Shown piece by piece: positions 24,679 to 46,178 of a DNA stretch of 46,178 bases; the stretch's first letter is position 1, and each line of letters opens with the position of its first letter. Under the pieces are notes generated by a model, which was not told the DNA's origin, did not search any database, and saw only the letters and a program-made list of their open reading frames with translations. A program made the translations under genes and the position numbers. The stretch is from Psammoneis japonica (taxonomy: Eukaryota), in assembly GCA_008632985.1 (NCBI GenBank), contig QPGO01000056.1:400406-446583 (forward strand), read 5' to 3'.

Positions 24679-25571
24679 NNNNNNNNNNNNNNNNNNNNNN
24701 NNNNNNNNNNNNNNNNNNNNNNNNNNNNNNNNNNNNNNNNNNNNNNNNNNNNNNNNNNNNNNNNNNNNNNNNNNNNNNNNNNNNNNNNNNNNNNNNNNNN
24801 NNNNNNNNNNNNNNNNNNNNNNNNNNNNNNNNNNNNNNNNNNNNNNNNNNNNNNNNNNNNNNNNNNNNNNNNNNNNNNNNNNNNNNNNNNNNNNNNNNNN
24901 NNNNNNNNNNNNNNNNNNNNNNNNNNNNNNNNNNNNNNNNNNNNNNNNNNNNNNNNNNNNNNNNNNNNNNNNNNNNNNNNNNNNNNNNNNNNNNNNNNNN
25001 NNNNNNNNNNNNNNNNNNNNNNNNNNNNNNNNNNNNNNNNNNNNNNNNNNNNNNNNNNNNNNNNNNNNNNNNNNNNNNNNNNNNNNNNNNNNNNNNNNNN
25101 NNNNNNNNNNNNNNNNNNNNNNNNNNNNNNNNNNNNNNNNNNNNNNNNNNNNNNNNNNNNNNNNNNNNNNNNNNNNNNNNNNNNNNNNNNNNNNNNNNNN
25201 NNNNNNNNNNNNNNNNNNNNNNNNNNNNNNNNNNNNNNNNNNNNNNNNNNNNNNNNNNNNNNNNNNNNNNNNNNNNNNNNNNNNNNNNNNNNNNNNNNNN
25301 NNNNNNNNNNNNNNNNNNNNNNNNNNNNNNNNNNNNNNNNNNNNNNNNNNNNNNNNNNNNNNNNNNNNNNNNNNNNNNNNNNNNNNNNNNNNNNNNNNNN
25401 NNNNNNNNNNNNNNNNNNNNNNNNNNNNNNNNNNNNNNNNNNNNNNNNNNNNNNNNNNNNNNNNNNNNTTGAGCACCAGAAACAAGTGCAACAACGCAAA
25501 CGACACGAACAGAATTTGGCGAGCCCGAGTGCATCATTTGGAGTCAAAGGTAGAGTCCCTGGAGAGGACTA

Positions 25572-26815
25572 TTGAACAATTGTATTCCCTTTTTCATGAT
25601 GAGTGAATTGTTGAAGGAGCCTTGCATTGGCCACGAAGCCAAATTTGAGCACTCTGACTTGGAGGAAGTGAAATTGACCCAATCGCATGATGACGGTAGC
25701 ACTCGTACAAAAAAGTGTCCGCGTTTTGATGGCACTCATGGCATTGAAGCATTGTCATTCGTTGAGGATCGTTTTCGTAAAATTGCTGTGAAATTGGAGT
25801 GCACCACTGGCGAGGAGTTGTTCGAAAATTTCGAGGAAGTGCTTGCGGACGCTGCAGAGGACAAGTGGGCGAACTTGACCAATGCAATTGACGATGCCGA
25901 TAAAACTGTCGAGCGTTTTGATCAGGAAATCAATCATTTTTACTTGTCTTATTGTGACAATGAAGCGCGTGATGCGATGATTGAATGTTTGCCAACTTTG
26001 AAAAAACCATTCAAATCTGAAGCACAGGCGCATGCAGATCGCATGGAAACCTTGATTCGGTGCTCCAACAAACTTCCAGGAAATGCTCCTCAAGTCAACG
26101 AAGCTCAGAAGAAAAAGATGACATTTGACAGCTTTCCTCGTCCATGGCGTGAGATGTGTGCTCGAGCAGGACGAGCGATGGCGAACGACACTCTCGCTGA
26201 GATCATCAGTCACACGAACAACGAGAAATCTTTTGCTGACAAGAGTGGCAACAAGAAGCAGGACAAGAAGAGGAAAAGCAATGTGCTTCGTCTCAAGCTT
26301 CAAGACGCTCTCGTGGCAACAGTGGCAGAACGGATCCAGAATCTAGATGCCCGGTGCATGCGAATCACGACCACAAGTGGAAGGACTGTGTTTTGAATCC
26401 AGAAAGCCAAAACTGTCGACCGAGGTCCGACCGTGGCGGTCGCAGCGGAGGTCGTGGTGGAGGCCGAGGAAACTGCCAAGGTGGAGGACCCCAAGGTCAA
26501 GGCGGTCGTGGCAACTTCCAAGGTCGAGGACGTGGCAATTGTGGCAATCAAGGAGGACATGGAGGCCGAGGTTACGGCAATTGTGACAACTCCCAGAATT
26601 CTCAAGGGAATGGATCCCATTGCCAAAATCAAAACGGCACCCAAGCCAACGGTGACACCCAAGGCTGTGGAAATCCGGCTGGAGCAGCTCCTCCTGGTGG
26701 CTGGCAAATGGAGTCGCACCATTTTGATCAAGGAGGGCCTCGTGAGATGCGAGGTGGAAATGGATGCGATCAGAACGGTCGCACCCATCAAGGCCAACGA
26801 AGTTGGCGTAATTGA
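25572..26815 (+). pseudogene. gag: gag of element C (frameshifted; C-x2-H-x4-H-x4-C knuckle and Gly/Arg/Gln-rich tail)
   Basis: ORFs 25572-26396 and 26354-26815; C.MHANHDHKWKDC; RGG-rich tail. Confidence 0.8.
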
Positions 26816-26889
26816 CAAGGGACGGAAGTGCCCGAGTCAGAGCGTGTCGCTCAATCTTTTTATGTTTCGTGTGATCGTGAAGAAAATGC

Positions 26890-29800
26890 ATGTGTTTTAA
26901 TGTTGATGACAATGTGGGAGACCTGATGGAATCTCATGCTGTGAATGAAGAAAAATTGGGCGGCGTTTTGGAGTGCGCTGCACCAACCCCTAAAACTGCA
27001 ACTCCCAAACCATTGAATGTGGTGCCAACAACGTTGATGGCGGCGCGTGCCATTCAAAATCAAGAGAGCAAGCGAGTGTTGCGAGTGCCATTGGATTCAG
27101 GAGGCACTGACACTCTTGTTCATTCTCGAGTTTTGCCGAAGGGAGCGAATCCAACCATGAACGATGAAGGACGGTTGAGCTTTCAGACGGCAGCCGGACG
27201 ATGTGAATCCTCCCGACACGCCATTGTGAAGGACTTGACATTGCCAGAATTTGACAAGTCAAAACAAGTCGACAGTGTTGCGGCTCAAGTTTTTGATGCC
27301 CCATGCAAGTGTGATTTAATTTTGGGACAAGACTTTTTGTTGAAAGCCGGAATCGTGCTTGATTTTCGATTTGGAGTGATGAAGTGGTTGGAAACGTCGA
27401 TCCCAATGAAGCAATCCAATCATTGGAACTCAGTGCAGAATTGGTTGGATGCACTGGAAGACGACGGAGAGGATGAAGACAATGAGGAAGCCTTCGGACA
27501 ATCTTTTGTGATGGATGCCAAATGCGAGAAAGTGTCATCCGCGAAAGTGGCGCAAGCTCAAACTCACTTGACTCAAGAACAATGTGATGAGCTGCAGGCT
27601 GTGCTTGAAAAGCATGAAACCCTCTTTGATGGAACGCTTGGCAAACATCCGCATGAGACTGCTCACTTGGAAAATTGATCCCAATGCTGTTCCCTTCCAT
27701 TCTAAGGCTTGCGAAGTGTCCAAGAGGGATGAAGCCATTTTTAAGAAAGAACTGCAACATCTGTGTAACATTGGCGTGCTGGAACCAGTGGGACCAACTG
27801 AATGGGCAGCTGGAACTTTTGCAACTCCCAAAAAGGATGGACGAGTTCGATGGGTGTCCGATTTTCGAGAGTTGAACAAGGTGCTCAAACGAAAGGTCTG
27901 TCCTCTGCCGATCATTCAAGACGTTGTTCACCGACGCTCGGGATGCAAGTTGCTTGACCAAGTTGGACCTCACTGTGTTTTATCATCATGTCGAACTTGA
28001 CGAAGAATCCAAGGATTTGTGTGCCATTGTCACTCCATTTGGAAATTTCGATGTTGTCGATTGGCCATGGGTTTGAAAACCTCTCCCGACATTGCTCAAG
28101 CCATCATTGAAAAAGTGGCAAAAGGAATCGATGTTGAAACTTACATCGATGACATTGCTCAATTTGATGATTCGTTTGATGCTCACATGCGTCGACTCGA
28201 TGAGCTGTTGTCCAGACTAGAAGAGAACAATCTGAAAATTAACCCACTCAAGTGCGAATGGTGTGTCCAAGAGACGGATTTTTTAGCACGCCTGCAGGAG
28301 TCCGACCGTGGAAGAAGAAAGTGGAAGCGGTGCTACGAATGCAACCACCTGAAACTGTGATGCAACTGCGATCGTTTATCGGTGCGGCAACTTGTTGTCG
28401 CAACATGTGGCCTCGTCGCTCACACGTGCTCGCTCCACTCACGAAGTTGACAGGCAAGAGCAAGTTGGAATGGACCCCTGAATGTCAACGAGCCTTTGAA
28501 GACATGAAAACCTTGATGCTGGACGACACCCTTTGGGTCTGCCCGAATCACAACAAGCCATTCCATGTTTGTGCTGACTCTTCGGACTGTCAGATGGGAG
28601 CCGTGATCATGCAAGACGGGAAACCAGTGGCTTGCTGGTCCCGGAAACTCAGCGCAGCACAACAGAACTGCTCTACGATTGAAAAAGAATTGTTGGCGGT
28701 GGCAATGTGTTTCAAAGAATTTCGAAGCATGTCATTTGGAGCTGACTGCACTGTTTTTATGGATCATAAAAATCTCACCTTTCGTGCGCTCAATTCTCAA
28801 CGAGTTTTTAGGTGGCGACTCTTCTTGGAAGATTTTGCCCCAACTTTCGAATACGTTGATGGCAAAGACAATCTCTTGGCAGATTGTTTTTCAAGATTGC
28901 CGCACATGGACCCTCCTGCGGAAGGGAAGTGTGCTCCTAACAAGGGCAAGCTGATTGATTTTAAAACGATCGACCCTGCCATGCTGCCGCATGAAGAAGA
29001 ACTGGACGACCAAAACAGTGTGTCTCATTTTTCCTGTCGTCGTGAAGAACCATCTCCATTTCATTCTTCTGTCGTGGACGACCCCGAATTGTGTGAATCA
29101 TTTTTGAACTGTCCTTCTCTCGAGGAAATGCAAAACCCTGCAACTGTGCAACGAATTCAAGAACACCAATTCGTCGACGTGGAGCTGAACAATGTGCGAC
29201 AACAATGTCCAGAACGCTTTGTTGTGGAACATGTGAATCAGCGTCCTGTAATTTGTCATTGTGCTCGACCGAATGATCCTCCGACTGCGTGGAAAATTTG
29301 TGTTCCAACAGCGTTGCTGCATGATGTCATACGATGGTGTCATGGGATTTTGGGACATGCAGGAGTGCACCGAATGCATTCCACTGTTGGCGCACATTTC
29401 CATCATCCTGCCCTTCGTCAATCCTGTGAAAGATTTCATTGTGCTGATTGTCAACGTTTGAAAACTTTGGGCCCTGGACATGGGGACCCACCTGAACGGG
29501 AAGCGCCTTTGTCACCATGGACGGAAGTTGCGGTTGACCTCATCGGTCCCTGGAAAATTGAAATTCAAAACCATGAAATCGAATTCAACGCTTTGACTTG
29601 CATTGACACCGTTTCGAATGTGACTGAACTTGTTCGTGTCGACAACAAAACCTCGTCTCACATTGCTCAACAATTTGAAAATTGTTGGTTGTCTCGTTGT
29701 CCTCGTCCCAACCGGTGCATCCATGACAATGGTGGAGAATTCATTGGAGAGGACTTTCAATTGTCATTGCAACGAGCAGGAGTGGAAGACGCTCCGACTG

Positions 29801-30303
29801 CGTCGCGAAATCCACAAGCCAATGCGGCATGCGAGCGCATGCATCAAACTGTTGGAAACATCTTGCGCACTTTGCTTCATGTTTGTCCTCCACAGAATGT
29901 TGAGCAGGCCAATCAACTGGTGGACAATGCATTGGCAACCGCCATGCATGCAATGCGATGTGCGGTTTCTCGTGCTCTCAAGATTTCACCCGGTGCTGTG
30001 GTTTTTCAACGTGACATGATTCTTGACTTGCCGGTCCTAGCCGATCTTGCTGCCATTCAAGAACACCGACAAGCGATTGTCAATGCGAATCTCCGTCGAG
30101 CCAACGCTGAACGCCGATCCCACGATTTTCAAGTTGGCGGACAAGTTCTACTCAAGGCTGTCGACCCAACCAAGCTCGAGCCACGAGCTCACGGTCCACA
30201 TCCTGTCGTTCAAGTGCACGCCAATGGCACACTTACGGTCCAACGCACACCTCATGTGACAGAACGATTGAACATACGTCACGTCGCACCGTATCATACC
30301 TGA
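26890..30303 (+). pseudogene. pol: pol of element C, frameshifted and heavily Tyr->Cys/His mutated
   Basis: VPLDSGGT (PR); SDFRELNK, YIDD (RT); CADSSDCQMGAV, EKELLA (RH); HGILGHAG, CADC, VDLIGPW, DNGGEF, NPQANAACER (IN). Confidence 0.95.
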
Positions 30304-31035
30304 GGTTGAGGGTTTTCTCCCCAACATTTGGGTTTCCCTTCTATCCTCATCCATTGGAATTTNNNNNNNNNNNNNNNNNNNNNNNNNNNNNNNNNNNNNN
30401 NNNNNNNNNNNNNNNNNNNNNNNNNNNNNNNNNNNNNNNNNNNNNNNNNNNNNNNNNNNNNNNNNNNNNNNNNNNNNNNNNNNNNNNNNNNNNNNNNNNN
30501 NNNNNNNNNNNNNNNNNNNNNNNNNNNNNNNNNNNNNNNNNNNNNNNNNNNNNNNNNNNNNNNNNNNNNNNNNNNNNNNNNNNNNNNNNNNNNNNNNNNN
30601 NNNNNNNNNNNNNNNNNNNNNNNNNNNNNNNNNNNNNNNNNNNNNNNNNNNNNNNNNNNNNNNNNNNNNNNNNNNNNNNNNNNNNNNNNNNNNNNNNNNN
30701 NNNNNNNNNNNNNNNNNNNNNNNNNNNNNNNNNNNNNNNNNNNNNNNNNNNNNNNNNNNNNNNNNNNNNNNNNNNNNNNNNNNNNNNNNNNNNNNNNNNN
30801 NNNNNNNNNNNNNNNNNNNNNNNNNNNNNNNNNNNNNNNNNNNNNNNNNNNNNNNNNNNNNNNNNNNNNNNNNNNNNNNNNNNNNNNNNNNNNNNNNNNN
30901 NNNNNNNNNNNNNNNNNNNNNNNNNNNNNNNNNNNNNNNNNNNNNNNNNNNNNNNNNNNNNNNNNNNNNNNNNNNNNNNNNNNNNNNNNNNNNNNNNNNN
31001 NNNNNNNNNNNNNNNNNNNNNNNNNNNNNNNNNNN

Positions 31036-31317
31036 TGTCCAGACTTGCTGTTTTGCGAAGCCCCAGACGTTTTACATGACGCATTTATAGAAACAATAAT
31101 GCGCCAGTTACATTCTTCAATGTCTGAAGAATGTAACTGGCTAAGTAAAAATCGATGTACTTCAATCATGTGCGAGTTTTTGCGTTCGCAAAATTGCCTC
31201 ATTTTCTGTTGGCGAACATTGACATTCTAATTACCGTATAATTTTACTACGGAGCTCGCACGTAGAATTCTACGGGCCCAATGTCACACGGATTCCCACC
31301 TACGTCTGGAACGCGTC
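31036..31317. mobile_element. MITE family 1 copy (one end, from gap)
   Basis: Ends ...CCCACCTACGTCTGGAACGCGTC; the terminal ~70 bp match 23286-23358; reverse complement of 41389-41670. Confidence 0.85.
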
Positions 31318-31412
31318 TACTCTATAGCTAGATCGTAGCTAACCCACTGCTGTAGACATTACGTCACCACTAACAAATATCCTAAATCTTGTTATTCCCT
31401 CACTAAAGCTGA

Positions 31413-32493
31413 TCATTCTACTTTCAAGCCTTTATTTACCTTTTCCGTGATGTATTCCATTGCATCATTTTGCTTGGACTTACCCACCTTTGTGTTGCCC
31501 AAAGTAATGGCGACACGTTGCATCACAGCATCTGTAACTCGGTACAGCTCTTGGCCTTCATGAACAAACTTCTTTCCCTTGAAGGACGCCCACTTCGTCT
31601 CGAGGAATCCTTCTTGGTTAGCGTAATAACGCGTGGAGAGCACGACACTTTCCGGGAAGCGCAAAATGAATTGACGGACGCCAGCACCATGGATGCTGCC
31701 ATCCTCCTCGTCACGCAGCTTTGCGCAAACTTCTTATTTTTCATTTCAGTCTGGCTGCAGGCATCACACCAGTCTGTGGCCTTCACATGATAGAGATGAT
31801 ATTTGTGCCTGTACTGATACGGCGCCGACGGAACTGTCATCAAGATGTCCGTCTCCAAGACAACCTGAGCCCGGCAGTTGTTCATGAAGAAGTCCTGAGC
31901 ATGGGTGGAATAGTTCACTATGTCAAAACCTTTGTGAACTTTTCCATCATCCACAGGACTGTCTTTGTCCCTAAAGAAGGTGATCCCAAGGTTGCCAAAT
32001 ATGTCGTGGTTGGTCGGATTGTCGAGGTCCACCATAACCACCTTCAAACCTGTGGCAGAAGAAAGCAACACCAAATGGCAAGTTGTGTTGAGTATCCTCA
32101 CCGGAAGAGTCAGTGTCAAATCCTGACATGAGTCGTGCTGTGGATCTCTCGGCCGGTTTGAACGCCGAGGTTTGCGAGATGTCGACAGCACTCTGCTTCT
32201 GGAAGCGAGAGATAATGACGAATGCGTTGGCGAATTTTTTCTCTCAAATCAGATCCAGGTGGCCCGAAGAGATCACTTTGCCCTTTGCAAAGCCTGCAAA
32301 TGTGAAGGTGATATGGGAGTCGTTGCTGCCCAAATGCAAGCCCGCCCGATTCCTCAATGTGTGTGATGAGTTCGCACTCGAGTTCTAATGGAAGTCCACA
32401 GCTGTTAGACCATTGAACTTGTTGCTGACAGTTGCCAATAGTAGTACCGCTGTCTTCTGCTGTTTTTGTGTCACTTGGGGTGTTCCCGTCCAT
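31413..32493 (-). pseudogene. Accessory ORF-A (~350 aa when frameshifts are joined), unknown function
   Basis: Successive protein-like frames LCKGQSDLFGPPGSDLREKIRQRIRHY / VMVDLDNPTNHDIFG..KVHKGFDIV / YYANQEGFLETKW; lesions differ between the two copies. Confidence 0.6.
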
Positions 32494-32735
32494 GAGCAAT
32501 GCACAGCGACATGAAACAAAAGTTTTCGCTGAAGCCAGCCGATCTCTTTGGAAGAGCAATCTGGTTTGTTGAAAGCGCACCAAAAACATCTGCAACGCAT
32601 TGGATTTCAATAAATAAATATAACGGTTGGAATTCTGGGGGCAATTGAACTTTCTAAGTAGAAAGATGCCGTTAATGGTTGGATTTTTCGCGTGACTGAA
32701 TTTTCGCTCGTCTTTCCAAAAACCGACGATGCACC

Positions 32736-33661
32736 ATGATGGGCCGAATGGAGAAACGACAAACAAAAGACCGCCCAAAGAAATGGGAGGAGCCGACAAA
32801 GAAGATGGGAGGAGATAAGGAGAGGCCACCTGCAAAAAAACAGAGCGAGGAAGCAGCTCGGTGGAGGAAAAGCTCAGCAAAAGCTCTGCTTCAGCAGGAT
32901 CTCCAACAAGGCCAGATCCCACTTGATGCGGCTACCATGAGTGCCGAGGACATATGGTGGCAACGTACAGAGTTTGTCGACTTCAGCTTTGACTTTTTTA
33001 AAGCCCGTTTGGTGTGCTATCGCAACAAAATATTCAAGGAAACTCACCCAGAGCTGGCACTACCGCAGCACGTCACAGGTGGCAGGAAATCCCGAATGAA
33101 GGAGGAGAAAGCAGCGGATAAGGCAAAAAAGGAAGAAGCAAAAAAGAAGCATTCACAAGAAGCAATTTTGTGGAGGAAAGGTGGGCTAAGGCATCTCCTC
33201 CAGCAAGATCTCTGTCGAGGGGAAATCCCAGTTGACGACAGTGGCATGACTGCTGATGAAGCATGGTGGCAATGCCCAGAATATACCGAGTTCAGCCTTG
33301 AGTTCTTCGAGGCTCGTTGGAGCACTATAGAGAAAAAGCATGCATGGAAAATCATCAAGCTGCTGCTGATGAGCTAGCACTGGCTCATGACAGGTGGCTG
33401 TTCCCCAAGAAGCCAACCAATTCCATCGGCAAGCCTCGATGGGAAGGATCTTTGGCAGAGAAATATTTGAAGATAGACATTGACAAGGAAAAGCACACAG
33501 TGCTTGCACCACGAGAACTTCGCAAAACCCGTGAAGAGCACCAGGTATTCGAGCTGGAGGTGTTCAGAAAGCACATTCACCAAGAGGTGAAAAAGCGAAA
33601 ATACATTGCGTGGTGCAAGAACGATGCAGAGAAGAAGGCAAAGGGAGAAAAGAAGCAGTAA
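32736..33661 (+). pseudogene. Accessory ORF-B (~300 aa) with three W-x3-4-AxxLL-x2-D helical repeats; 1-bp frameshift at ~33318
   Basis: WRKSSAKALLQQDL..WWQRTEF..F..RL; WRKGGLRHLLQQDL..WWQCPEY..F..R; WEGSLAEKYLKIDI..TREEH..F..HI; copy 2 has the extra T that restores the frame. Confidence 0.7.
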
Positions 33662-33695
33662 CTTTCCAGAAACTACCTAATTAGTAGCTGCCACC

Positions 33696-34031
33696 TTATT
33701 CCACCACCATGCCATCCCCACGCTTTTTCTTCTTGGCGCCACCCTCCATGGTCGTCTTGAATGATGCGAGCAAGCGATCCGCAAGTTTCTTGACATCGCT
33801 CTCGTCAAGTCCCATCTTGCCAAACTTCCTGGCGAGCACATCGACTTCTTCTAAAGGCTGCATCTCCTTGATAAACTTCTTCTTGATGTAGAAACTGACG
33901 TCCTTTTCATACAAAAGCACCTTGACCTTCTGCGCGGTGATCTTTTTCACCCTTCCCCATTCGCCTTGGTGTTCTCCACCGACAATGTCAATGCTTCCTT
34001 TGGCAATCATGGTGGCCTTTTCTGTTTCCAA
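33696..34031 (-). CDS. Accessory ORF-C, small KOW-motif protein with basic tail
   Basis: KGSI(V)DIVGGEHQGEWGRVKKITAQKVKV fits the KOW pattern; KKKKR at the C-terminus. Confidence 0.6.
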   Translation of the reverse strand: METEKATMIAKGSIDIVGGEHQGEWGRVKKITAQKVKVLLYEKDVSFYIKKKFIKEMQPLEEVDVLARKFGKMGLDESDVKKLADRLLASFKTTMEGGAKKKKRGDGMVVE

Positions 34032-34250
34032 TTTGTGGATTGTGATTTGACTGCGAGTGTGAGCTATGTAGTGCTGTGCTGTAGCATGGACCGTGAGCGT
34101 GTGGAACTACATTTGCACACTGCAATTGTAGCCTACCCAATCTATACGGCAAACCTGTCGAACATTTAAGTCCCACAAAATCTTGACTATTTTTATAGCT
34201 ACGCGAGGGTAAGAGCCACAATTCCACAACAAAATTCACTGGTCCGCACG

Positions 34251-34903
34251 ATGCTTCGTATGTCGAGTAGTCAAGTGCTGCGGGTTGGCCTGCAGCTCTA
34301 TGGAGTTGACATCCATCACCAGAAACGGTCATCTGAGGCGGGTGACATCCGTCGATTCAAAAAAGTCTACGGCTCTAGCCCTGAAGTTTGCAAGAAAATT
34401 TTTCATGACCTCCAAATGACCAAGGTAGAAGCGGCAAGGATTGATCCGGCAGACATCTGTCTCGACTGTTTCTTTATGGCCATGAATTTCCTAAAACTGT
34501 GTGAAACGGAGGAAGTCCGCTCGGCCACTTTTGATGCATCTGAAAATACAATGCGCAAGTGGGTATGGCATTATGTTAGAAGGATTCAAGCACTCAAGAA
34601 AGAAAATATTGTCTGGCCAGACAAATGGAACCGCACTGCAAGCGACGTACCTGTTTTTCTCTTCTCCGTGGATGGTGTCCACTGCAGGCAAAACACCCGC
34701 TGTATTCAAAACACAAGGAGCACTACTCTCATAAGTTCAAGCAAGCAGGTTTGACTTTTATGAGCTCGCCATGTCGATTCATGAGGATCAACTTGTGTGG
34801 ATGTGTCGGCCATTCCCAGCCTCAAAGCATGACATCACGATGTTCCAGGAGAAGCTTCTAAAAAAGATTGCACCTGGGAAACGTGCAATCGGTGACAAGG
34901 GTT
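34251..34903 (+). pseudogene. DDE_Tnp_4-type (PIF/Harbinger/ISL2EU, IS5-like) transposase, frameshifted and 3'-truncated
   Basis: HTH-like FLKL.ETEE..SATFDASENTMRKWVW; SVDGVHC; YSHKFKQAGL.YEL; PFPASKHDITMF; AIGDKG, then cut by the tandem repeat. Confidence 0.82.
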
Positions 34904-36130
34904 GAGGTCACTTGCTTGACGAAGTCACCCCACCTACATTCGATAACCCCGATAAACATGTATGAACACTTCAATGATGAGGTGCGAAGGGGGGCTGCTT
35001 CGCAGTCGACCCCAACTCGGCAAGCGTCCTCTTACATAACAACCCATGATAGGAAGGGGGGTGTTCTAAAGGCTGCATCTCCTTGATAAACTTCTCAAAC
35101 ATTGGAAAGCTCTAAGTAAAACACTCAGAACACGCACAAAGCCATGGCAACCCCCAAGGGAGCAGAGGTGCTGATCACACCTTGAAGCTGCGAACCCAAT
35201 GCAGAAGACAAGGCGACGTTCATGGTCCCGCGTCTGCAAGCACACCTGCTCGAGCCCACGTGCCAGCAGGACAGGACCTCTGGGCACTGGCAAACCACCA
35301 GCACTCAGAATAAATTAGATGCTCTGATTGGTCCCCAACGTGTCAGTGAAAAGGTAAGCTCAGTGGTGGAGCTTCGCCGATCATAGGACGAGGCCGGGGG
35401 TTCGAGTCCCTCCCTTTTTCCGTACACACGTGCTTGAACCGGCAACCCGGAAACGGGTTGAGGTCACTTGCTTGACGAAGTCGCCCCACCTACATTCGAT
35501 AACCCCGATAAACATGTATGAATACTTCAATAATGAGGTGCGACGGGGGGCTGCTTCGCAGTCGACCCCAACTCGGCAAGCGTCCTCTTACATAACAACC
35601 CATGATAGGAAGGGGGGTGTTCCCTAACAGAACCCTACCCTACACCGTGCGAACCCTAACCCTGGGCACAGCAAGGAAGGGGGGCGTTCCCTAACCGAAC
35701 CCTACCCTACACCGTGCGAACCCTAACCCTGGGCAGTGCACCCTAACTGGAACCCCAGCAGTTAGGAACGGTGGCCCTATCCACTTAGGGAAGGGCGCGG
35801 CAGTGACGCCTTCGATTAAGCAAACATTGGAAAGCTCTAAGTAAAACACTCAGAACACGCGCAAAGCCATGGCAACCCCCAAGGAGCAGAGGTGCTGATC
35901 ACACCTTGAAGCAGCGAACCCAATGCAGAAGACAAGGCGACGTTCATGGTCCCACGTCTGCAAGCACACCTGCTCGAGCCCACGTGCCAGCAGGACAGGA
36001 CCTCTGGGCACTGGCAAACCACCAGCACTCAGAATAAATTAGATGCTCTGATTGGTCCCCAACGTGTCAGTGAAAAGGTAAGCTCAGTGGTGGAGCTTCG
36101 CCGATCATAGGACGAGGCCGGGGGTTCGAG
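34899..36130 (+). repeat. ~725-bp tandem repeat (period 35096->35821) with tRNA-like segment and CCCTAA-like motifs
   Basis: caaacattggaaagctctaag at 35096 and 35821; gggttgaggtcacttgc at 34899 and ~35455; the family continues at 41336-41388 and 42252-43109. Confidence 0.88.
35348..35420 (+). ncRNA. tRNA-derived Pol III unit (degenerate cloverleaf) within the repeat
   Basis: Acceptor GAAAAGG/CCTTTTT, D-arm GCTC-AGTGGTG-GAGC (A box), T-arm GGGGG-TTCGAGT-CCCTC (B box); anticodon arm imperfect. Confidence 0.7.
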
Positions 36131-36409
36131 NNNNNNNNNNNNNNNNNNNNNNNNNNNNNNNNNNNNNNNNNNNNNNNNNNNNNNNNNNNNNNNNNNNNNN
36201 NNNNNNNNNNNNNNNNNNNNNNNNNNNNNNNNNNNNNNNNNNNNNNNNNNNNNNNNNNNNNNNNNNNNNNNNNNNNNNNNNNNNNNNNNNNNNNNNNNNN
36301 NNNNNNNNNNNNNNNNNNNNNNNNNNNNNNNNNNNNNNNNNNNNNNNNNNNNNNNNNNNNNNNNNNNNNNNNNNNNNNNNNNNNNNNNNNNNNNNNNNNN
36401 NNNNNNNNN

Positions 36410-39400
36410 TGAGATTAAATTTTGCTCTGTGATTTTTGGTTTCTCCGAACGAGTTCTCAATGGCCTAAAGCTTCTGCGCTGCTTCTACAGACAAAAGGCC
36501 TTTCGGAGAATATAAGTGACAACAGATAGTCCGAATACGATTGCTTTTGACACATAAGATGTCAGCATCGTCCATCGATCGTATTTGCGATTTTCGACTT
36601 CCGATCAACTCTGTGTGATCGTTCTGTCCTTTGTACGCATCCACGACTGTGGTACGATTGACATATAAATAATATATAATCATAAATATGTATATAACAG
36701 TCGCATACTGCATTCGCCTCCCTAATTGCACATTAGAGTCATTTGTTAAGTGGATTATTCGACGGATATTGACAGTGTCAATAATGTCTCCACGTTCACT
36801 GTATTGTGCCATTAGTAATGACTGTTGTCGTTTTGTATAGGCCATGTGGGGCCGTTCCAATTTCCGAATGTCTTATGAGAGTGACATCGTTTGTTTCTCA
36901 CTTTATATATATATGTATACACAGTATTACGTCGAGTATTCTCGTTGACGTTCTTTGTTGATATGAACACAAGGACCAATTGTCCTGCAGTGTTTTTCAT
37001 GATATCGATTGTACCTGGCATTATGCCCAGTGCTTGATGTACGCTCTTTTAATTATTATGGCGTTCACTTTACTTGTGGAGTTCGTGTAGTTCTGGCTGG
37101 CTAACTTTATATGTGCCATGTTGCTCTGCTGCACTTCCACGTCGTAAGTAATTAACGATGGTCAAGGATATTTTCTAACCATTTCGTCTTGATAATCCTG
37201 GGATGGTTATGGATTCCTTTATGGATTTCTTTATTACTTCAACCATCTTTCCTTTGGATTTTGATCGTTATTTGGACGTTTCTTTTTGACATACCGGTGA
37301 CATTTCGTCATTCCGAAGGCACTGCTTTTGTGCACTATTCGGATAAATAATGTCCATTTTTGTGTTTTGTTTCTGAATCTTTGGCACATCTCGTGTGACG
37401 TTATTTATGTCTTGCCTCGTACATCGTACATTACAATCGTACGGGTGCTGTGAGATTGTCTTTTGCCAATGTGAAGTAGGTGCATATAATGTATGCCAAT
37501 CTGTCACTGATTTTTTCTTTAACCGTCCCTAAATAAGGCGATTTTTTCCTTATGACATGAGCATTTTTGATCTCGCTCGCCTCCACGAAAAGTGTTCGTA
37601 TGATATGTCGCGTCCGACAATTTGGAGGAAATGTCTTTATCCCATTTTGTTCAGTGTCGAGAACTTTGCAATTTAACGGAAAGACATTGTCGTAGGATTT
37701 TGGTAGGACCTTTTCAGCTAACTCTTCTGTGCTGAGGTTTTCCATAGGTTCTATTTTTTTATAGTAAGTCGGCTGATCGCTCTTGCGACGACGTTCGCCT
37801 TGTCCTCGATGTATTTTAATTCGGGACTGAAATTTTTTATTTTAAGTCGTCAACGCATGACTATGTCCGTTGTGTGTTATGAACCGTGTGTATAATAATC
37901 TGTTGGCCAAACAGTATATTCCGGGAATTATTAAGTGTTTCCACTATGGACAGAAGTTCTTTTTCCGTTGTGACTTGAATGTTACAATACCATGTTTGAT
38001 AATGACATAGTTTTTGATATGATGCGCTCCATATTTTCGGAGACTTTTCGTTCTGTACTTGTCCTTTTGCCGTTTGACCTTTATTGAGGTGGATTTGGCT
38101 AGAAATGTACAGGAGATCATTGAGACTACATGTCTTTATAGTAGTAACGTATATCGACAAGCTGTCGTAATATTCTTTACGTTTTGCTCAATGTTGCGAT
38201 TGCCGGAATCGCCTCCATTTTCTTTGTAATCGGATGTATACCGTTACGTATGGAAGTCTTGATAATATTTTTCAAGTTAAGTAGTGAAGGACTTTTGTTT
38301 GTTAACCTTCAAAGCGACTGTTCTAGTCGTATGAATGCCATTTCAAGTTTTTCTTGTACAGGTGACATTTTGAAGTTACTTTCTGTCAGGTATAAACGTT
38401 CATTCATAGTCGTTCTGACAACTTTAAACCTGTCATGAGTTTGCTCATGTGTTGTATGAAAATATCTGGGGCTCTATAGATTCTTGTTGGAAGTCTATAG
38501 CACTCGTTTTCCCCCACGGCATTATTCTGATGTGAGCACGACGTGTGCTTTCTTGATTTTACATCGTGGTGTTCCATGTTTGAATCGTAATTTCATTTTT
38601 AAATCTTCAATCTTTCATAATTGGTTAAATTCCTTTCAAATGGACGCCTCCAAAGACTATGATAGGAGAAGGTTCTCACACGTCGCGTAATCGCGTCAGA
38701 TTTTTCATGGTGAGATCCACTGGTTCTTCCCATTCATTTGTCCAATGAACTTTTCAAAAGGATTTTAAACCTCATAAGAAGGAGACTGAGTGGTTTATCT
38801 TCTTTTGGTTTAGATGTATTGCTGTAGCTGTCACTTGATTAGAATCGACGGTGTGATAATGTGAGTCGAGAACCATCGGTCTCGTTATTAACTCTATTCA
38901 CTGGTGATATTTTTCAATGTGATCGGCATTCAGCTGGAACATTTTTGTATCGAAGAGTGCATCAACATTCTTCATAGGGTAATTGCTTCATTCCCATTTG
39001 ATTTCTTCAATTGCGTAGTCTAGTATGATTGCAAGACTGGACATTAAGTCGCGTCCCATGATCATGTCATTCGACCTTGAAGGGTATTTGGTGTTATTGA
39101 CATGTGCTGTTTGAATATCAGTAAGTCTTAAATTCGCGTAGTGAGAACTGAATTCGGTGTTTACTATCAGTCGTAAAGAGCTCACCCTTGGTTTCCCAAG
39201 TTTTTTGGTGGCGGATATTTTGGTTCTCAACTTTCGCACGATTTTGCGTAAAATCATGGGCTGACGATGTTCTTTATCGAGAGAACACGTAGAAGCTTAT
39301 TTTTTGCTTTTCTCAGAGTAGCAGTCATATAGACAGCGAGAATAGGACTCGCACAACATACTGTGATGCTTTTTCTGGGTTTCCAGACATCCTGTAACGC

Positions 39401-40977
39401 GTTATACTCCTCGAGCGGTATAAATTTTTGATCGGACTCGATCGGGTCAATTTTTCTAAATTGATAGTTTTATTCGCTAAGCGTTTTAGAGTCTTAATTT
39501 TTGCTCTTGCGCTTTTTATCTTTGTTCGAAGAACTCGCTTTGAGTATTTTTTTGAACTGCTTGGATAACCACAGCATTCAACTCTTCTTTGCGAGAGGCA
39601 TTATCGTTATCGCGACGCGACCGCGTGCGATTGCCATTTGAACTGTGCCGTTTTGGATCACATTTATCGTGTCCACGGCGTTCTTTCGCTAGTTCTTTTG
39701 CAGAATAGCCTGAATCCGTGATGCAGGTGTTCTTTATTGAAAGATTGGACCTTGCATTCACTTTGGATTGTTCTGGCACCACACAGGAGACCATTTTTGG
39801 AACCAAAATTGGAACCTTTTTGATTATGGAATCAACTGCGCTATCAGAGCCTGAGTTGATAAATTTTTTTGTCACAGACGTCCTTGCCGACCTCTAGACG
39901 ACTCAAACCTCAATCAGCTTGTCAAGGGTATGATCCAGTAGTTCAACATTTTGGACAGTAGGCTGATGCTGCCATCCTTGCGGTGCGAGTGATAGCTGAT
40001 AACTCAGCGCTCGTTTTCCCGCTAGATTCGACTTAGAATCGATCTGAGGGTCATATAGACTCTCATCATTGACCTCTTGGGTCTATCAGAGGCTTCTTTG
40101 CTGTTGAGCGGCTCTGGTTTCTTCAGGTCGTCTCGAAAATAATTTCCCTGATTCTGAAGTGCATTTCCTCAGAGGACATGAGTTATGAGACGCTTGAGTA
40201 CTTTCCAACGATTCCCTCTTGCTCCTTGGACTCGAGGATCATCGATTCGGTCTCAAAAAACTCTCCAATAGTCTCTCCTTGCATGGTAGACGTATTTCTC
40301 GGATCTGATCGACTCGGAACTTGCATTCTCTGCAACCATGAATTGGTGTAGATTTTTTGATAATGCGGTGTACTTGAGAGCCCTTGATCCTTGGGTGCTT
40401 GGAATAGACCGTATTAGAGCGAATCCTCTCGTTTGGTAGACGAAAAACAGCGTTCCATCTTGAGGTACTGCTCGGATTGAGCTTCTTCCGCTCGGAAATC
40501 GATTCCAGCAGAACTGATGCGATTCGCTCCTGTTTAGAAGAATTTACAAAGGCATGTTAGTTAAAATTTTCATTTTCCGTGCTTTTTACCTTCTGTGGTG
40601 TGTATACACAATGCACTATGCTCGAAGAACGAGTGTAAACGAAAGTAGAATAGTGTACGAAAAGTGGAAATTATGAGATTAAATTTTGCTCTTTGATTTT
40701 GGTTTCTCCGAACGAGTTCTCAATGGCCTAAAGCTTCTGTGCTGCTTCTACAGACAAAAGGCCTTTCGGAGAATATAATCGTGACAACAGATAGTCCGAA
40801 TACGATTGCTTTTGACACATAAGATGTCAGCATCGTCCATCGATCGTATTTGCGATTTTCGACTTCCGATCAACTCTGTGTGATCGTTCTGTCCTTCGCA
40901 CGCATCCACGACTGTGGCACGATTGACACATAAATGATGTGTAATCACATGTATGTACACAACAGTCGCATACTGCA
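36410..40977 (-). mobile_element. Second copy (B') of the non-autonomous Gypsy element B, much less TpA-mutated
   Basis: LTRs at 36410-36712 (partial, gap) and 40612-40977; internal region colinear with the reverse complement of 13026-17019; PPT at 36713-36724. Confidence 0.92.
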
Positions 40978-41335
40978 ATTGGGCCCGTAGACTTCTACGT
41001 GCGAGCTCCGTAGTAATTTATATGGTAATTAAAATGTCAATGATCGCCAACAGAAAATGAGGCAATTTTGCGAACGCACAAACTCGCACATGATTTAAGT
41101 GCATCATTTTTTACTTAGCCAGTTACATTCTTCAGACATTGAAGAATGTAACTGGCGCATTATTGTTTCTATAAATTTGTCATATAAAACGTCTGGGGCT
41201 TCGCAAAACAGCGAGTCTGGACAATTTTTTTAATATCACAAGTAGAAATCTACGTACGAAACATACGACGGATGATAAAAATTATTGTTGTCACACGTCA
41301 GTACTACGAGCTCCCACCTAGGGCTGGAATGCGTC
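40978..41335. mobile_element. MITE family 1 copy lacking its first ~35 bp (apparently interrupted by B')
   Basis: Begins attgggcccgtagac (internal to the MITE end), ends CCCACCTAGGGCTGGAATGCGTC; near-duplicate of 41424-41698. Confidence 0.85.
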
Positions 41336-41388
41336 CCTCTTACATGACAACCCATGATAGGAAGGGGGGTGTTCCCTAACCGAACCCT

Positions 41389-41698
41389 GACGCGTTCCAG
41401 ACGTAGGTGGGAATCCGGGTGACATTGGGCCCGTAGACTTCTACGTGCGAGCTCCGTAGTAAAATTATACGGTAATTAAAATGTCAATGATCGCCAACAG
41501 AAAATGAGGCAATTTTGCGAACGCACAAACTCGCACATGATTGAAGTACATCATTTTTTACTTAGCCAGTTACATTCTTCAGACATTGAAGAATGTAACT
41601 GGCGCATTGTTGTTTCTATAAATTTGTCATATAAAACGTCTGGGCTTCGCCAAAACAGCAAGTCTGGACAATTTTTTTTAAATGTCACACGTAGAAAT
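41389..41698. mobile_element. MITE family 1 copy (runs into gap), inserted in the tandem repeat
   Basis: Starts GACGCGTTCCAGACGTAGGTGGGA directly after the repeat sequence cgaaccct. Confidence 0.85.
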
Positions 41699-42251
41699 NN
41701 NNNNNNNNNNNNNNNNNNNNNNNNNNNNNNNNNNNNNNNNNNNNNNNNNNNNNNNNNNNNNNNNNNNNNNNNNNNNNNNNNNNNNNNNNNNNNNNNNNNN
41801 NNNNNNNNNNNNNNNNNNNNNNNNNNNNNNNNNNNNNNNNNNNNNNNNNNNNNNNNNNNNNNNNNNNNNNNNNNNNNNNNNNNNNNNNNNNNNNNNNNNN
41901 NNNNNNNNNNNNNNNNNNNNNNNNNNNNNNNNNNNNNNNNNNNNNNNNNNNNNNNNNNNNNNNNNNNNNNNNNNNNNNNNNNNNNNNNNNNNNNNNNNNN
42001 NNNNNNNNNNNNNNNNNNNNNNNNNNNNNNNNNNNNNNNNNNNNNNNNNNNNNNNNNNNNNNNNNNNNNNNNNNNNNNNNNNNNNNNNNNNNNNNNNNNN
42101 NNNNNNNNNNNNNNNNNNNNNNNNNNNNNNNNNNNNNNNNNNNNNNNNNNNNNNNNNNNNNNNNNNNNNNNNNNNNNNNNNNNNNNNNNNNNNNNNNNNN
42201 NNNNNNNNNNNNNNNNNNNNNNNNNNNNNNNNNNNNNNNNNNNNNNNNNNN

Positions 42252-43109
42252 GATCGTAGGACGAGGCCGGGGTTCGAGTCCCTCCCTTTTTCCGTACACA
42301 CGTGCTTGAACCGGCAACCCGGAAATGGGTTGAGGTTACTTGCTTGACGAAGTTGCCCCACCTACATTCGATAACCCGACAAACATGTATGAACACTTCA
42401 ACAATGAGGTGCGACGGGGGGCTGCTTCGCAGTCGACCCCAACTCGGCAATCGTCCTCTTACATAACAACCCATGATGGGAAGGGGGGTGTTCCCCAACC
42501 GAACCCTACCCTACACCGTGCGAACCCTAACCCTGGGCACAGCAAGGAAGGGGGCGTTCCCTAACCGAACCCTGCCCTACACCGTGCGAACCCTAACACT
42601 GGGCAGTGCACCCTAACTGGAACCCCAGTAGTTAGGAACGGGTGGCCCTATCCCACTTAGGGAAGGGCGCGGCAGTGACGCCTTCGATTAAGCAAACATT
42701 GGAAAGCTCTAAGTAAAACACTTGGAACATGCGCAAAGCCATGGCAACCCCCAAGGGAGCAGAGGTGCTGATCACACCTTGAAGCAGCGAACCCAATGTA
42801 GAAGACAAGGCGACGTTCATGGTCCCGCGTCTGCAAGCACACCTGCTCGAGCCCACGTGCCAGCAGGACAGGACCTCTGGGCACTGGCAAACCACCAGCA
42901 CTCAGAATAAATTAGATGCTCTGATTGGTCCCCAACGTGTCAGTGAAAAGGTAAGCTCAGTGGTGGAGCTTCGCCGATCATAGGACGAGGCCGGGGGTTC
43001 GAGTCCCTCCCTTTTTCCGTACACACGTGCTTGAACGGCAACCCGGAAACGGGTTGAGGTCACTTGCTTGACAAAGTCGCCCCACCTACATTCGATAACC
43101 CGATAAACA
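42252..43109 (+). repeat. ~725-bp tandem repeat, further unit plus terminal partial unit
   Basis: Colinear with 35379-36130 and 35400-35514. Confidence 0.88.
42945..43017 (+). ncRNA. tRNA-derived Pol III unit, another copy
   Basis: Matches 35348-35420; partial copies at 36072-36130 and 42252-42292. Confidence 0.7.
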
Positions 43110-43294
43110 CAACGCCTTGATGCCTGCCTGCCATACAAATCTTGCCATTTTCCAACGATTTTGGAACAACTCCCTCTCCAAAATCCAAGCCATTACCTGC
43201 CTGCAAGGCCCAGTTCTTTCCCGCTTTACCGTTCGCCATGTACATGTACACCACTCCACCAGGCGATGTAGTGCGTGAACTTCTCACAAGCGCA

Positions 43295-46178
43295 TGCTCT
43301 ATAGCTAGATCGTAGCTAACCCACTGCTGTAGACATTACGTCACCACTAACAAATATCCTAAATCTTGTTGTCCCTCACTAAAGCTGATCATTCTACTTT
43401 CAAGCCTTAATTTACCTTTTCCGTGATGTATTCCATTGCATCATTTTGCTTGGACTTACCATCTTTGTGTTGCCCGAAGTGATGGCGACACGTTGCATCA
43501 CAGCATCTGTAACTCGGTGCAGCTCTTGGCCTTCATGAACAAACTTCTTTCCCTTGAAGGACGCCCACTTCGTCTCGAGGAATCCTTCTTGGTTAGCGTA
43601 ATAACGCGTGAGAGCATGACACTTTCCGGGAAGCACAAAATGAATTGACGGATGCCAGCACCATGGATGCTGCCATCCTCCTCGTCACGCAGCTTTTGCG
43701 CAAACTTCTTATTTTTCATTTCAGTCTGGCTGCAGGCATCACACCAGTCTATAGCCTTCACATGATAGAGATGATATTTGTGCCTGCACTGATACGGCGC
43801 TGACGGAACTGTCATCAAGATGTCCGTCTCCGAGACAACTGAGCCCGGCAGTTGTTCATGAAGAAGTCCTGAGCATGGGCGGAATAGTTCACTATGTCAA
43901 AACCTTTGTGAACTTTTCCATCATCCACAGGACTGTCTTTGTCCCTAAAAAGGTGATCCCAAGGTTGCCGAATGTGTCGTGGTTGGTCGGATCGTCGAGG
44001 TCCACCATAACCACCTTCAAACCTGTGGCAGAAGAAAGCAACACCAAATGGCAAGTTGTGTCGAGTATCCTCGCCGGAAGAGTCAGTGTCAAATCCTGAC
44101 ATGGCGGTGTTGGACTTCTGTTGGTGGTGAGTCGTGCTGTGGATCTCTCGGCCGGTTTGAACGCCGAGGTTTCCGAGATGTCGACAGTGCTCTGCTTCTG
44201 GAAGCGAGCGATAATAACGAATGCGTTGGCGAATTTTTTCTCTCAAATCAGATCCAGGTGGCCCGAAGAGATCACTTTTGCCCTTTGCAAAGCCTGCAAA
44301 CGTGAAGGTGATGTGGGAGTCGTTGCTGCCCAAATGCAAGCCCGCCCGATTCCTCAATGTGTGTGATGAGTTCGCACTCGAGTTCTAATGGAAGTCCACA
44401 GCTGTTGGACCATTGAACTTGTTGCTGACAGTTGCCAACAGTAGTACCGCTGTCTTCTGCTGTTTTGTGTCACTTGGGGTGTTCCCGTCCATGAGCAATG
44501 CACAGCGACATGAAACAAAAGTTTTCGCTGAAGCCAGCCGATCTCTTTGGAAGAGCAATCTGGTTTGTTGAAAGCGCACCAAAAACATCTGCAACGCATT
44601 GGATTTCAATAAGTAAATATAACGGTTGGAATTCTGGGGGCAATTGAACTTCCTAAGTAGAAAGATGCCGTTAACGGTTGGATTTTTTCGCGTGACTGAA
44701 TTTTCGCTCGTCTTTCCAAAAACCGACGATGCACCATGATGGGCCGAACGGAGAAACGACAAACAAAAGACCGCCCAAAGAAATGGGAGGAGCCAACAAA
44801 GAAGATGGGAGGAGATAAGGAGAGGCCACCTGCAAAAAAACAGAGCGAGGAAGCAGCTCGGTGGAGGAAAAGCTCAGCAAAAGCTCTGCTTCAGCAGGAT
44901 CTCCGACAAGGCCAGATCCCACTTGATGCGGCTACCATGAGTGCCGAGGACATATGGTGGCAACGTACAGAGTTTGTTGACTTCAGCTTTGACTTTTTTT
45001 AAAGCCCGTTTGGTGTGCTATCACAACAAAATATTCAAGGAAACTCACCCAGAGCTGGCACTACCACAGCACATCACAGGTGGCAGGAAATCCCGAACGA
45101 AGGAGGACAAAGCAGCGGATAAGGCAAAAAAGGAAGAAGCAAAAAAGAAGCATTCACAAGAAGCAATTTTGTGGAGGAAAGGTGGGCCAAGGCATCTCCT
45201 CCAGCAAGATCTCCGTCGAGGGGAAATCCCAGTTGACGACAGTGGCATGACTGCTGATGAAGCATGGTGGCAACGCCCAGAATATACCGAGTTCAGCCTT
45301 GAGTTCTTCGAGGCTCGTTTGGAGCACTATAGAGAAAAAGCATGCATGGAAAATCATCAAGCTGCTGCTGATGANGCACTGGCTCATGACAGGCGGCTGT
45401 TCCCAAGAAGCCAACCAATTCCATTGGCAAGCCTCGATGGATCTTTGCAGAAAAATATTTGAAGACAGACATTGACAAGGAAAAGCACACAGTGCTTGCA
45501 CCACGAGAACTTTGCAAAACCCATGAAGAGCACCAGGTATTCGAGCTAGAGGTGTTCAGAAAGCACATTCACCAAGAGTGAAAAAGCGAAAATACATTGC
45601 GTGCAAGANACGATGCAGAGAAGAAGGCAAAGGGAGAAAAGAAGTAGTAACTTTCCAGAAACTACCTAATTAGTAGCTGCTACCTTGTTCCACCACCATG
45701 CCATCCCCACGCTTTTTCTTCTTGGCGCCACCCTCCATGGTCGTCTTGAATGATGCGAGCAAGCGATCCGCAAGTTTCTGACATCGCTCTCGTCAAGTCC
45801 CATCTTGCCAACCTCCTGGCGAGCACATCGACTTCTTCTAAAGGCTGCATCTCCTTGATGAACTTCTTCTTGATGTAGAACGTGTCGTCCTTTTCATGCA
45901 AAAGCACCTTGACCTTCTGCGCGGTGATCTTTTTCACCCTTCCCCATTCGCCTTGGTGTTCTCCACCGACAACGTCAACGATACTTCCTTTGGCAATCAT
46001 GGTGGCCTTTTCTGTTCCAATTGTGGATTGTGATTTGACTGCGAGTGTGAGCTGTGTAGTGCTGTGCTGTAGCATGGACCGTGAGCATGTGGAACTACAT
46101 TTGCACACTACAATTGTAGCCACCTAATCTATACGGCAAACCTGTCGAACATGTAAGTCCCACAAAATCTTGACTATT
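43295..46178. mobile_element. Harbinger-like cassette, copy 2 (ORF-A 43389-44492 minus, ORF-B 44736-45650 plus, ORF-C ~45680-46000 minus; transposase expected beyond the window end)
   Basis: Colinear direct duplicate of 31318-34190 with independent indels. Confidence 0.75.

Follow-up and report, generated by a model that had tools for sequence, protein, structure and literature searches.

RIP of ascomycetes changes C to T at CpA, creating TpA, and is homology-triggered, premeiotic and RID-dependent. TpA itself is the target in the rhizarian alga Bigelowiella natans, where integrated NCLDV and virophage DNA undergoes TpA hypermutation (Mettrop et al., bioRxiv 10.64898/2026.01.13.699255). According to the parts of this preprint available to us, de novo TpA mutation was directly seen in lines, in two viral regions, with the rate raised about 1000-fold in mitotic lines; TpA-poor coding sequences are enriched for DDE endonuclease and RT domains, and ADAT2 is proposed. 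The chromosomal substrate of TpA erasure is not new, having already been described in that alga. Editing of retroelements by ADAR and APOBEC, as presented in the available passages of PMC5663115, resembles the process considered here in its deaminase-type transition clusters and 5' neighbour preference; it differs in its substrate, the RNA or cDNA intermediates through which retroelements pass, and in being restricted to one strand. In the present case both strands are altered, in elements that are not retroelements and in target duplications. The literature searched, which covered few subscription papers, yielded no diatom report of TpA hypermutation and only the Bigelowiella preprint, in whose available text the words "diatom", "MITE" and "trinucleotide" are absent.

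The window analysed here is a stretch of 46,178 nucleotides from the diatom-like genome of Psammoneis japonica (contig QPGO01000056.1). Together with comparisons across the genome, it indicates that cut-and-paste transposons lose TA steps, which become TG or CA, after inserting, as retrotransposons do.

Results

The cassettes and their Harbinger-like element

Judged by sequence similarity, the cassette is part of a broken Harbinger-like (DDE_Tnp_4) DNA transposon. Copy 1 (31320..34191, forward strand; TpA observed/expected 0.44) corresponds to the accessory-ORF part and keeps the ORF order found at C1, C2 and C126. Copy 2 (43110..46178, forward) is ended by the contig end; in C196 it runs on into an internally deleted transposase and then subterminal repeats. 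The element includes a further accessory ORF remnant (31526..32248, reverse) that is kept in the C2 and C126 relatives, a frameshifted second ORF without Pfam match (32700..33660, forward), a small ORF (33699..34106, reverse) with a weak KOW-motif match under the cut-off, and a broken DDE_Tnp_4-type transposase (34251..34902, forward). The latter is frameshifted and is interrupted at about 34899 by a local GC-rich repeat block (34899..36130); a second block lies at 42252-43109, and 9 of 19 differences are of the TA class.

The DDE_Tnp_4 assignment is indirect: the window ORF matches protein P0001 (E 3e-26), which scores above the PF13359 cut-off. Pfam gave no match for the transposase fragments of the window and its relatives, and a homologue search with the N-part of the window transposase gave none either; a search using the C2 fragment found one protein. 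The element is like PIF/Harbinger (Pfam DDE_Tnp_4) in its transposase homologue and its second ORF, and one relative, that at C2, has a TIR (27 of 28 bp) and possibly a 3-bp duplication (CAG flanking both ends under one reading). It is unlike PIF/Harbinger in its extra accessory ORFs. The second ORF, whose place in the order is conserved, gave no Myb/SANT match in Pfam (the ORFs are degraded); the ends of the element, sought as TIRs on C196, were not found. The cassettes had initially been annotated as transposed copies, which was not borne out: they have the appearance of a duplication within one element and are probably just that. As parts of a broken unit of this kind, they constitute modest evidence when taken alone. 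The Gypsy-type LTR element between them (36410..40977) is mainly TA-intact, with an observed/expected ratio of 0.71.

Substitutions between the cassette copies

The two copies align over 31320-34191 and 43297-46178 with 95.6% identity, and all eight example differences listed in the initial annotation are present (31544, 31812, 32407, 32439, 33187, 33474, 33873 and 31776/31778). The 2750 clean columns contain 67 substitutions: 22 TA<->TG/CA, 29 CG<->CA/TG, 5 other transitions, 9 transversions and, in the remaining 2 columns, one CA/TG double change. The annotation had predicted an excess of TA-context changes over other transitions after normalisation. This holds with respect to non-CpG sites (22/167 vs 5/1547 per target, Fisher p 8e-19; unpolarised count 22/631, p 2e-8), but there is no excess over CpG in this pair (22/167 vs 29/231, p 0.88). 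CpG decay, which the annotation left out, is in fact the largest class (29 vs 22).

TA-class changes divide into 15 A/G and 7 T/C (p 0.13), and TA was lost in both copies, 13 times in copy 2 and 9 times in copy 1. The same variants occur in two contigs, and contigs of one DNA run, possibly the source of the assembly, agree with copy 2 at 6 of these 22 sites. Polarity is given by the transposase: at two codons (TA>TG at 34468 and 34501) the window has Cys, while copy 2 in C196 and the outgroup P0001 (Tyr125, Tyr136) have Tyr.

Non-autonomous TIR elements

The foldback MITE of the window (23783..24238) is bounded by TTAA, i.e., has piggyBac-like ends, and belongs to a family that includes erased copies. 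Scoring of 40 of 52 candidates and alignment of 13 near-full copies revealed that TA, TG and CA all occur at 20 of 27 variable sites, and that one side of the TTAA target duplication is mutated in 4 of the 9 copies with both ends found. The arm differences cited earlier are real; their positions, 23858 and 23877, fall beyond the range under which they were reported, and they are in part inherited family variants. An inverted match at 12295-13025, considered as another foldback MITE, is actually two Gypsy LTRs, tail to tail.

The 396-bp family has the features of MITEs: TIRs, a target duplication, high copy number (more than 1,200 first-look candidates, many copies intact) and, judged by length, a non-coding nature. 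The visible part of one copy (31036..31317, forward), young and TA-intact with a 4-bp target duplication, sits in cassette copy 1, and two further partial, TA-intact copies occupy 40978..41698 (reverse). These window copies were rejected as evidence, TA-class changes being just 2/16 and 3/13 of their substitutions, without enrichment.

In 32 erased copies of this family, 718 of 952 TA cells are altered, with 348 TG and 370 CA outcomes (p 0.43); each copy has its own pattern (32 distinct in 32), and both outcomes occur at 26 of 30 sites. Because copies were collected for their resemblance to a single erased one, per-site outcomes in this set are biased; its per-site bias was discarded as a context rule, being confounded by collection, and Gypsy and transposase pairs were used instead. 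TA loss is far ahead of CG loss (135/864) and correlates with it (rho 0.74), as age alone may explain. Outside CpG, A>G cells number 22 at CA, 23 at AA and 4 at GA, vs 8 at TG, 2 at AG and 0 at GG for G>A. Target duplications are identical in 57 of 64 copies. Many young copies are intact although their flanks are erased, and retained TA does not track the TA content of the flanks (rho -0.13, p 0.32).

Neighbour rule, targets and spared loci

Two Gypsy elements provide the retro comparison. The erased one (25469..30362, forward) has TG or CA at 171 of the 214 TAs of its C196 counterpart; the half-erased one (17388..22024, reverse) has lost 126 of 232. It should be noted that reading these C57-C196 differences as alleles is unsafe, both blocks adjoining N gaps and their left flanks differing. 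Among ten Harbinger/piggyBac pairs, for which some loci were reused (L037 three times, L079 twice) and flanks are verified in part, 402 of 802 TAs are altered, split 208:194.

TAC and TAT are altered more readily than TAG, and TAG more than TAA, TTAA being the most resistant; the +1 rule is alike in Gypsy and DNA-transposon pairs (chi2 p 0.30). Correspondingly, the TAs surviving in 273 erased tiles are enriched 4.0x for TTAA and depleted to 0.06x for ATAT. Across the Gypsy, MITE and DNA-transposon comparisons, A>G and T>C changes are almost confined to TpA, on both strands: TA is altered about 50x more often than AA, and transversions are at background level. Double CA<->TG differences number 18-58 per erased-copy pair vs 0-2 in LHC pairs. 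At TATA sites, 23 of 29 adjacent pairs change on one strand; beyond such adjacent sites, neither long-range strand coordination nor long same-strand runs were found.

In our locus sample of transposase cores, LHC pairs and rDNA, foreign or selfish DNA is altered and host genes are spared. Transposase cores with TpA observed/expected under 0.25 make up 11/23 and 10/16, vs 3/30 for LHC. The 18S rDNA copy of the window (5052..6855, forward), a negative control, has a ratio of 0.87, and eight rDNA copies show a single TA>CA over 7 comparisons of 116 TAs. Four LHC paralogue pairs are spared as well, with duplicates 96-97% identical. Erased Harbinger relatives are just 67-84% alike to their nearest kin found, and DNA-methyltransferase gene copies, tandem or dispersed, are erased (L165-L167, L171). 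The suggestion that repeat DNA of any class is the target fails for the rDNA, the LHC pairs and the many young MITE copies. That class II elements are also struck, on both strands and after insertion, is upheld by the Harbinger/piggyBac pairs, the MITEs and the one-sided TTAA changes.

Discussion

We are highly confident of the joint pattern: TA gives way to TG or CA on both strands within single copies, at least partly after insertion, in Gypsy, Harbinger-like, piggyBac-like and non-autonomous TIR elements, under one neighbour rule and without long runs, with rDNA and LHC spared and young copies lagging. Overall, it is probably best explained by a host mutator that changes A to G in the DNA of silenced transposon chromatin of both element classes; its pace is best read as slow or episodic.

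The alteration of TIR elements on both strands after insertion makes retro-transcript editing very unlikely. ADAR-like editing of transcripts, fixed via reverse transcription or cDNA conversion, could draw on two A_deamin genes in the genome and on the preference of ADAR for A after 5' U or A in the available passages of PMC5663115. However, TIR elements have no RNA stage, duplicated target sites are changed on one side, and changes of both strands are interspersed within copies without long runs. In contrast to the ADAR motif of that source, AA is almost unaltered and there is no preference for G on the 3' side. An ADAR-type pattern, with one strand per copy and retroelements only, was not seen, and we regard this explanation as extremely improbable. 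We also consider it very improbable that the signal arose in sequencing or assembly, or that TA change merely accompanies ordinary CpG decay. N gaps do occur at repeats in the window, scaffolding may have placed paralogues as Gypsy B and D, and CpG transitions are the biggest class in the cassette pair, but cassette variants recur identically in two contigs, 6 of the 22 TA-class sites have the copy-2 letter in the run contigs, genes and rDNA are clean, TA cannot be removed by CpG decay, and polarity is fixed by the outside protein P0001.

RIP-like homology sensing, in which pairing would reveal any duplicated DNA and expose it to mutation at TA, accords with the loss of TAs in both cassette copies after duplication, with the erased DNA-methyltransferase gene copies and with the repeat nature of every erased class examined. 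The sparing of rDNA and of near-identical LHC duplicates speaks against it; RIP likewise spares some rDNA, and the rDNA control is therefore not decisive. It is made unlikely, further, by the many intact copies in the large MITE family, by Harbinger relatives erased despite their distant kin, and by the single-copy target in B. natans, as given in the available text of Mettrop et al. (bioRxiv 10.64898/2026.01.13.699255). Rather unlikely as well is an origin in methylated chromatin through repair or DNA synthesis that is error-prone and biased, be it by pol eta-like A:T mutagenesis near T:G mismatches or through lesions of T or of methylated A. It would suit the co-variation of TA and CG loss, the slight surplus of A>G changes at CA and AA, and the one-strand changes at adjacent TATA sites, as a short repair patch might yield; against it stand the preference for TA over AA, transversions at background level and the lead of TA loss over CG loss. 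The WA spectrum of pol eta is, moreover, much broader. TA is palindromic, and a lesion on T is thus indistinguishable from one on A.

Like the host mutator favoured here, fungal RIP is a dinucleotide-specific transition hypermutation that ruins chromosomal transposons of both classes. The pair and direction are opposite, since RIP makes TpA and here TA is lost; RIP-type C>T at CpA raising TpA was not encountered, nor were long same-strand runs. B. natans, so far as the available preprint text describes it, shares the change of TpA to TpG or CpA on both strands of chromosomal DNA, its restriction to foreign or silent regions and its intermittency. It differs in that viral regions of a rhizarian are concerned, transposons being suggested there by Pfam enrichment alone; what the diatom-like genome adds, from sequence comparison, is evidence at the level of single copies for TIR elements and for target duplications, erasure that is nearly complete, and a neighbour rule.

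The substrate is hereby settled as chromosomal DNA, not a retro-transcript, and a signature of viral insertions in a rhizarian alga is extended to class I and class II transposons. Dating of elements by divergence is unreliable in this genome. Hundreds of near-identical MITE copies, intact to erased at different loci, form a ready reporter; with copies so graded, targeting rules (methylation, small RNA, age, transcription) are directly testable. A natural DNA adenine mutator, if true, would mirror RIP and be interesting with regard to base editing.

Once mobile elements of either class are inserted and silenced, the host process would act on their chromosomal DNA, turning the A of T-A steps on either strand into G. 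Adenine may be deaminated to inosine, read as G in replication, by a TadA/ADAT2-type enzyme recruited to silenced chromatin that is probably cytosine-methylated or small-RNA-marked; repeated small rounds would continue until hardly any TA is left and the ORFs are destroyed (Tyr>Cys/His). An adenine deaminase combined with a silencing mark is, by a slight preference, our candidate cause, and the mutator is possibly of ADAT2 type. A neighbour preference of TadA for TAY found no support in the literature searched, and for rice one passage of the available text reports no obvious neighbour preference. The Asn that Mettrop et al. emphasise occurs in the four aligned ADAT2-type structures too, and therefore has no discriminating value. 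More tentatively still, diatoms might possess a natural base editor for DNA adenines, a TadA/ADAT2-type enzyme guided to silenced chromatin, defending generally against transposons of every class and belonging to the same system as Bigelowiella anti-viral hypermutation, which would make it old within SAR. Searches with PF00383 and PF02137 gave 9+4 matches, none of them a fused or expanded deaminase; the genome has an ordinary-looking ADAT2, a TadA-like gene and the two A_deamin genes, as well as 27 C5-methylase matches.

TpA erasure in DNA transposons

Our results show that the conversion of TA to TG or CA (erasure) is a chromosomal process that acts on both strands, after insertion, and independently of element class. 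The initial annotation had proposed chromosomal DNA rather than retro-RNA as the target, and this proposal holds, mostly on evidence from other parts of the genome than those it drew on.

The timing of erasure is indicated by the foldback MITE (23783–24238), for which 40 of 52 candidates were scored and 13 near-full copies aligned, with three partial copies left out; this sample is less biased than the 396-bp MITE set described below. The TTAA target duplication is host DNA created on insertion, and its two sides are discordant in four of the nine copies with both ends found; therefore, the mutations arose later, in the chromosome. Five erased copies contain 61 TG and 54 CA, and TA, TG, and CA are all seen at 20 of the family's 27 variable sites. 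The foldback arm differences first cited as examples are genuine TA sites but are in part inherited variants.

At 31036 lies a 396-bp MITE whose target duplications are 4 bp long; of the 64 copies inspected, 57 have the same duplication on both sides. The searches gave 1403 and 1293 first-look candidates, 40 being scored per search, and 59 loci were analysed. The 32 copies retaining at most half of the 30 TA sites hold 348 TG, 370 CA, and 234 TA cells; all 32 patterns are distinct, both outcomes occur at 26 of the 30 sites, and 135 of 864 CGs are lost. Because this erased set was fetched by likeness to a single erased copy, it overstates inter-copy agreement and does not give the erased share of the family. 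Most young copies are intact and lie within flanks of observed/expected (o/e) TpA near 0.05.

Among autonomous transposons, TpA o/e falls below 0.25 in 11 of 23 DDE_Tnp_4 and 10 of 16 piggyBac transposase cores, compared with 3 of 30 genes of the LHC host family, whose median is itself low (0.37). Ten Harbinger/piggyBac pairs, with loci reused and flanks unverified, lost 402 of 802 TAs, divided 208:194 between strands. Double CA↔TG changes number 18–58 between erased pairs versus 0–2 in LHC pairs; LHC paralogues display ordinary substitution spectra. Low-copy Harbinger relatives are erased. Eight 18S copies, dispersed over seven contigs and 99.6–99.9% alike to the window copy (5052–6855), are TA-intact. 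Thus, the suggestion that repeat DNA of any class is targeted is right in that class II as well as Gypsy elements are erased, but too broad, since 18S copies, LHC paralogues, and most young MITE copies are spared. Erasure depends on age, silencing state, or both; copy number by itself does not decide it.

The rDNA unit at 5052–6855 lies amid transposons, within a TpA-normal block of about 4600–11000. Elsewhere, loci L165–L167 and L171 (contigs C297 and C301) hold multiple C5 DNA-methyltransferase gene copies, some in tandem and all erased (o/e 0.0–0.09), which may be carried by a transposon or may be duplicates of a host gene.

The cassette pair

The cassette copies (31320–34191 and 43297–46178) differ by 67 substitutions over 2750 clean columns: 22 between TA and TG/CA, 29 between CG and CA/TG, 5 other transitions, 2 forming one double change, and 9 transversions. 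The sites initially quoted are all present. Per target, the TA excess is about 40-fold over other non-CpG transitions (22/167 versus 5/1547, p = 8e-19) but the TA rate equals that of CpG (29/231, p = 0.88). By strand, the changes divide 15:7 (p = 0.13), and both copies have lost TAs (13 and 9). C57, the window's contig, and C196 agree on both copies; in contigs from one run, possibly the assembly's own source, the copy-2 letter appears at 6 of 22 TA-class sites, such contigs dropping variants.

Judging from sequence, the cassette is a Harbinger-like class II element, because its ORF order is kept next to a transposase on C1, C2, and C126, its transposase matches the DDE_Tnp_4 protein P0001 (E = 3e-26), and a C2 relative spans 5.1 kb between inverted ends (27/28 bp) with, under one reading, CAG on either side. 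No TIR was found for the window's own element. The C196 locus has related palindromic subterminal repeats ahead of copy 1 and behind copy 2, and its copy 2 retains the transposase C-terminus after a deletion; for these reasons the pair probably arose by duplication inside a single broken element rather than by two transpositions. At the positions of Tyr125 and Tyr136 of P0001, C196 copy 2 keeps Tyr whereas copy 1 has Cys; P0001, as outgroup, fixes the direction of change from Tyr codons to Cys. Relatives carry Cys or His at the majority of the Tyr positions aligned.

On C2, a mostly erased Harbinger-like element (L019:4365–9891) seems to have gone into the border of a MITE that is itself intact. 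Its erasure ends ~500 bp before one end, the last ~500 bp keeping their TAs, and it may have moved after its erasure.

Neighbour preference and candidate enzymes

If the A of TA is taken to be the target, two Gypsy pairs show hit fractions of 0.20, 0.42, 0.24, and 0.44 before a 3′ A, C, G, and T, respectively; the corresponding values for DNA-transposon pairs are 0.13, 0.36, 0.19, and 0.33, with no difference between the hit distributions (p = 0.30). Among surviving TAs of 273 erased 1-kb tiles, TTAA is enriched 4.0-fold and ATAT stands at 0.06-fold. The absence of same-strand runs, except at adjacent TATA (23/29), points to many small rounds. This neighbour rule may resemble the preference of TadA. 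The accessible portions of PMC9399415, PMC10960570, and PMC11369719 lend that likeness no support. The motif reported for ADAR in the accessible part of PMC5663115, with U or A on the 5′ side and G on the 3′ side, does not fit.

Adenine deamination by a TadA/ADAT2-type enzyme on silenced chromatin is the proposed mechanism; a lesion on T instead of A, or biased repair, may be responsible instead. The genome contains ADAT2, a TadA-like gene, and two A_deamin genes, all ordinary in appearance, and the Asn stressed in the available part of Mettrop et al. (bioRxiv 10.64898/2026.01.13.699255) is common to ordinary ADAT2 structures. An open frame at L155:313–1785 (minus strand) joins a nucleotide-deaminase-like domain to an apparent 2-oxoglutarate dioxygenase domain, the latter recognized by eye.

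TpA erasure in P. japonica is real and is a variant of a kind of hypermutation described recently. The same preprint, in its available part, describes two viral regions of B. natans, one of them demonstrated to be single-copy, where TpA>TpG/CpA hypermutation arises de novo. It also points to TpA-poor CDS that encode DDE endonuclease and RT domains, and it proposes ADAT2 as the mutator; a chromosomal rather than RNA target, possibly including transposons, was therefore already anticipated in print. Our literature search found no diatom report of TpA erasure and no copy-level class II evidence.

Genomic setting

The genome (91 Mb, 597 contigs) is called diatom-like on the basis of 82 LHC matches. 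The window, at the end of C57, consists of nested Gypsy elements, MITEs, one rDNA unit, and the cassette pair, and its TpA o/e extends from 0.02 (1–2000) to 0.88 (rDNA); 1–2000 is an old block in which TpA (0.02) and CpG (0.23) are both nearly lost. The same locus is present on C196, almost without gaps. Gypsy blocks 17387–22024 and 25469–30362 differ from C196 almost solely by TA loss, and the adjoining blocks are 99.3–99.9% identical to it; either erasure was specific to one allele, or paralogues were put in the wrong place at scaffold gaps. At 12295–17387, a Gypsy element sits inverted within the LTR of another element and resembles a foldback. A local GC-rich repeat block (34899–36130 and 42252–43109) combines a 66–67-bp tandem unit with a 29-bp cassette piece, and TA-class differences are seen there too.
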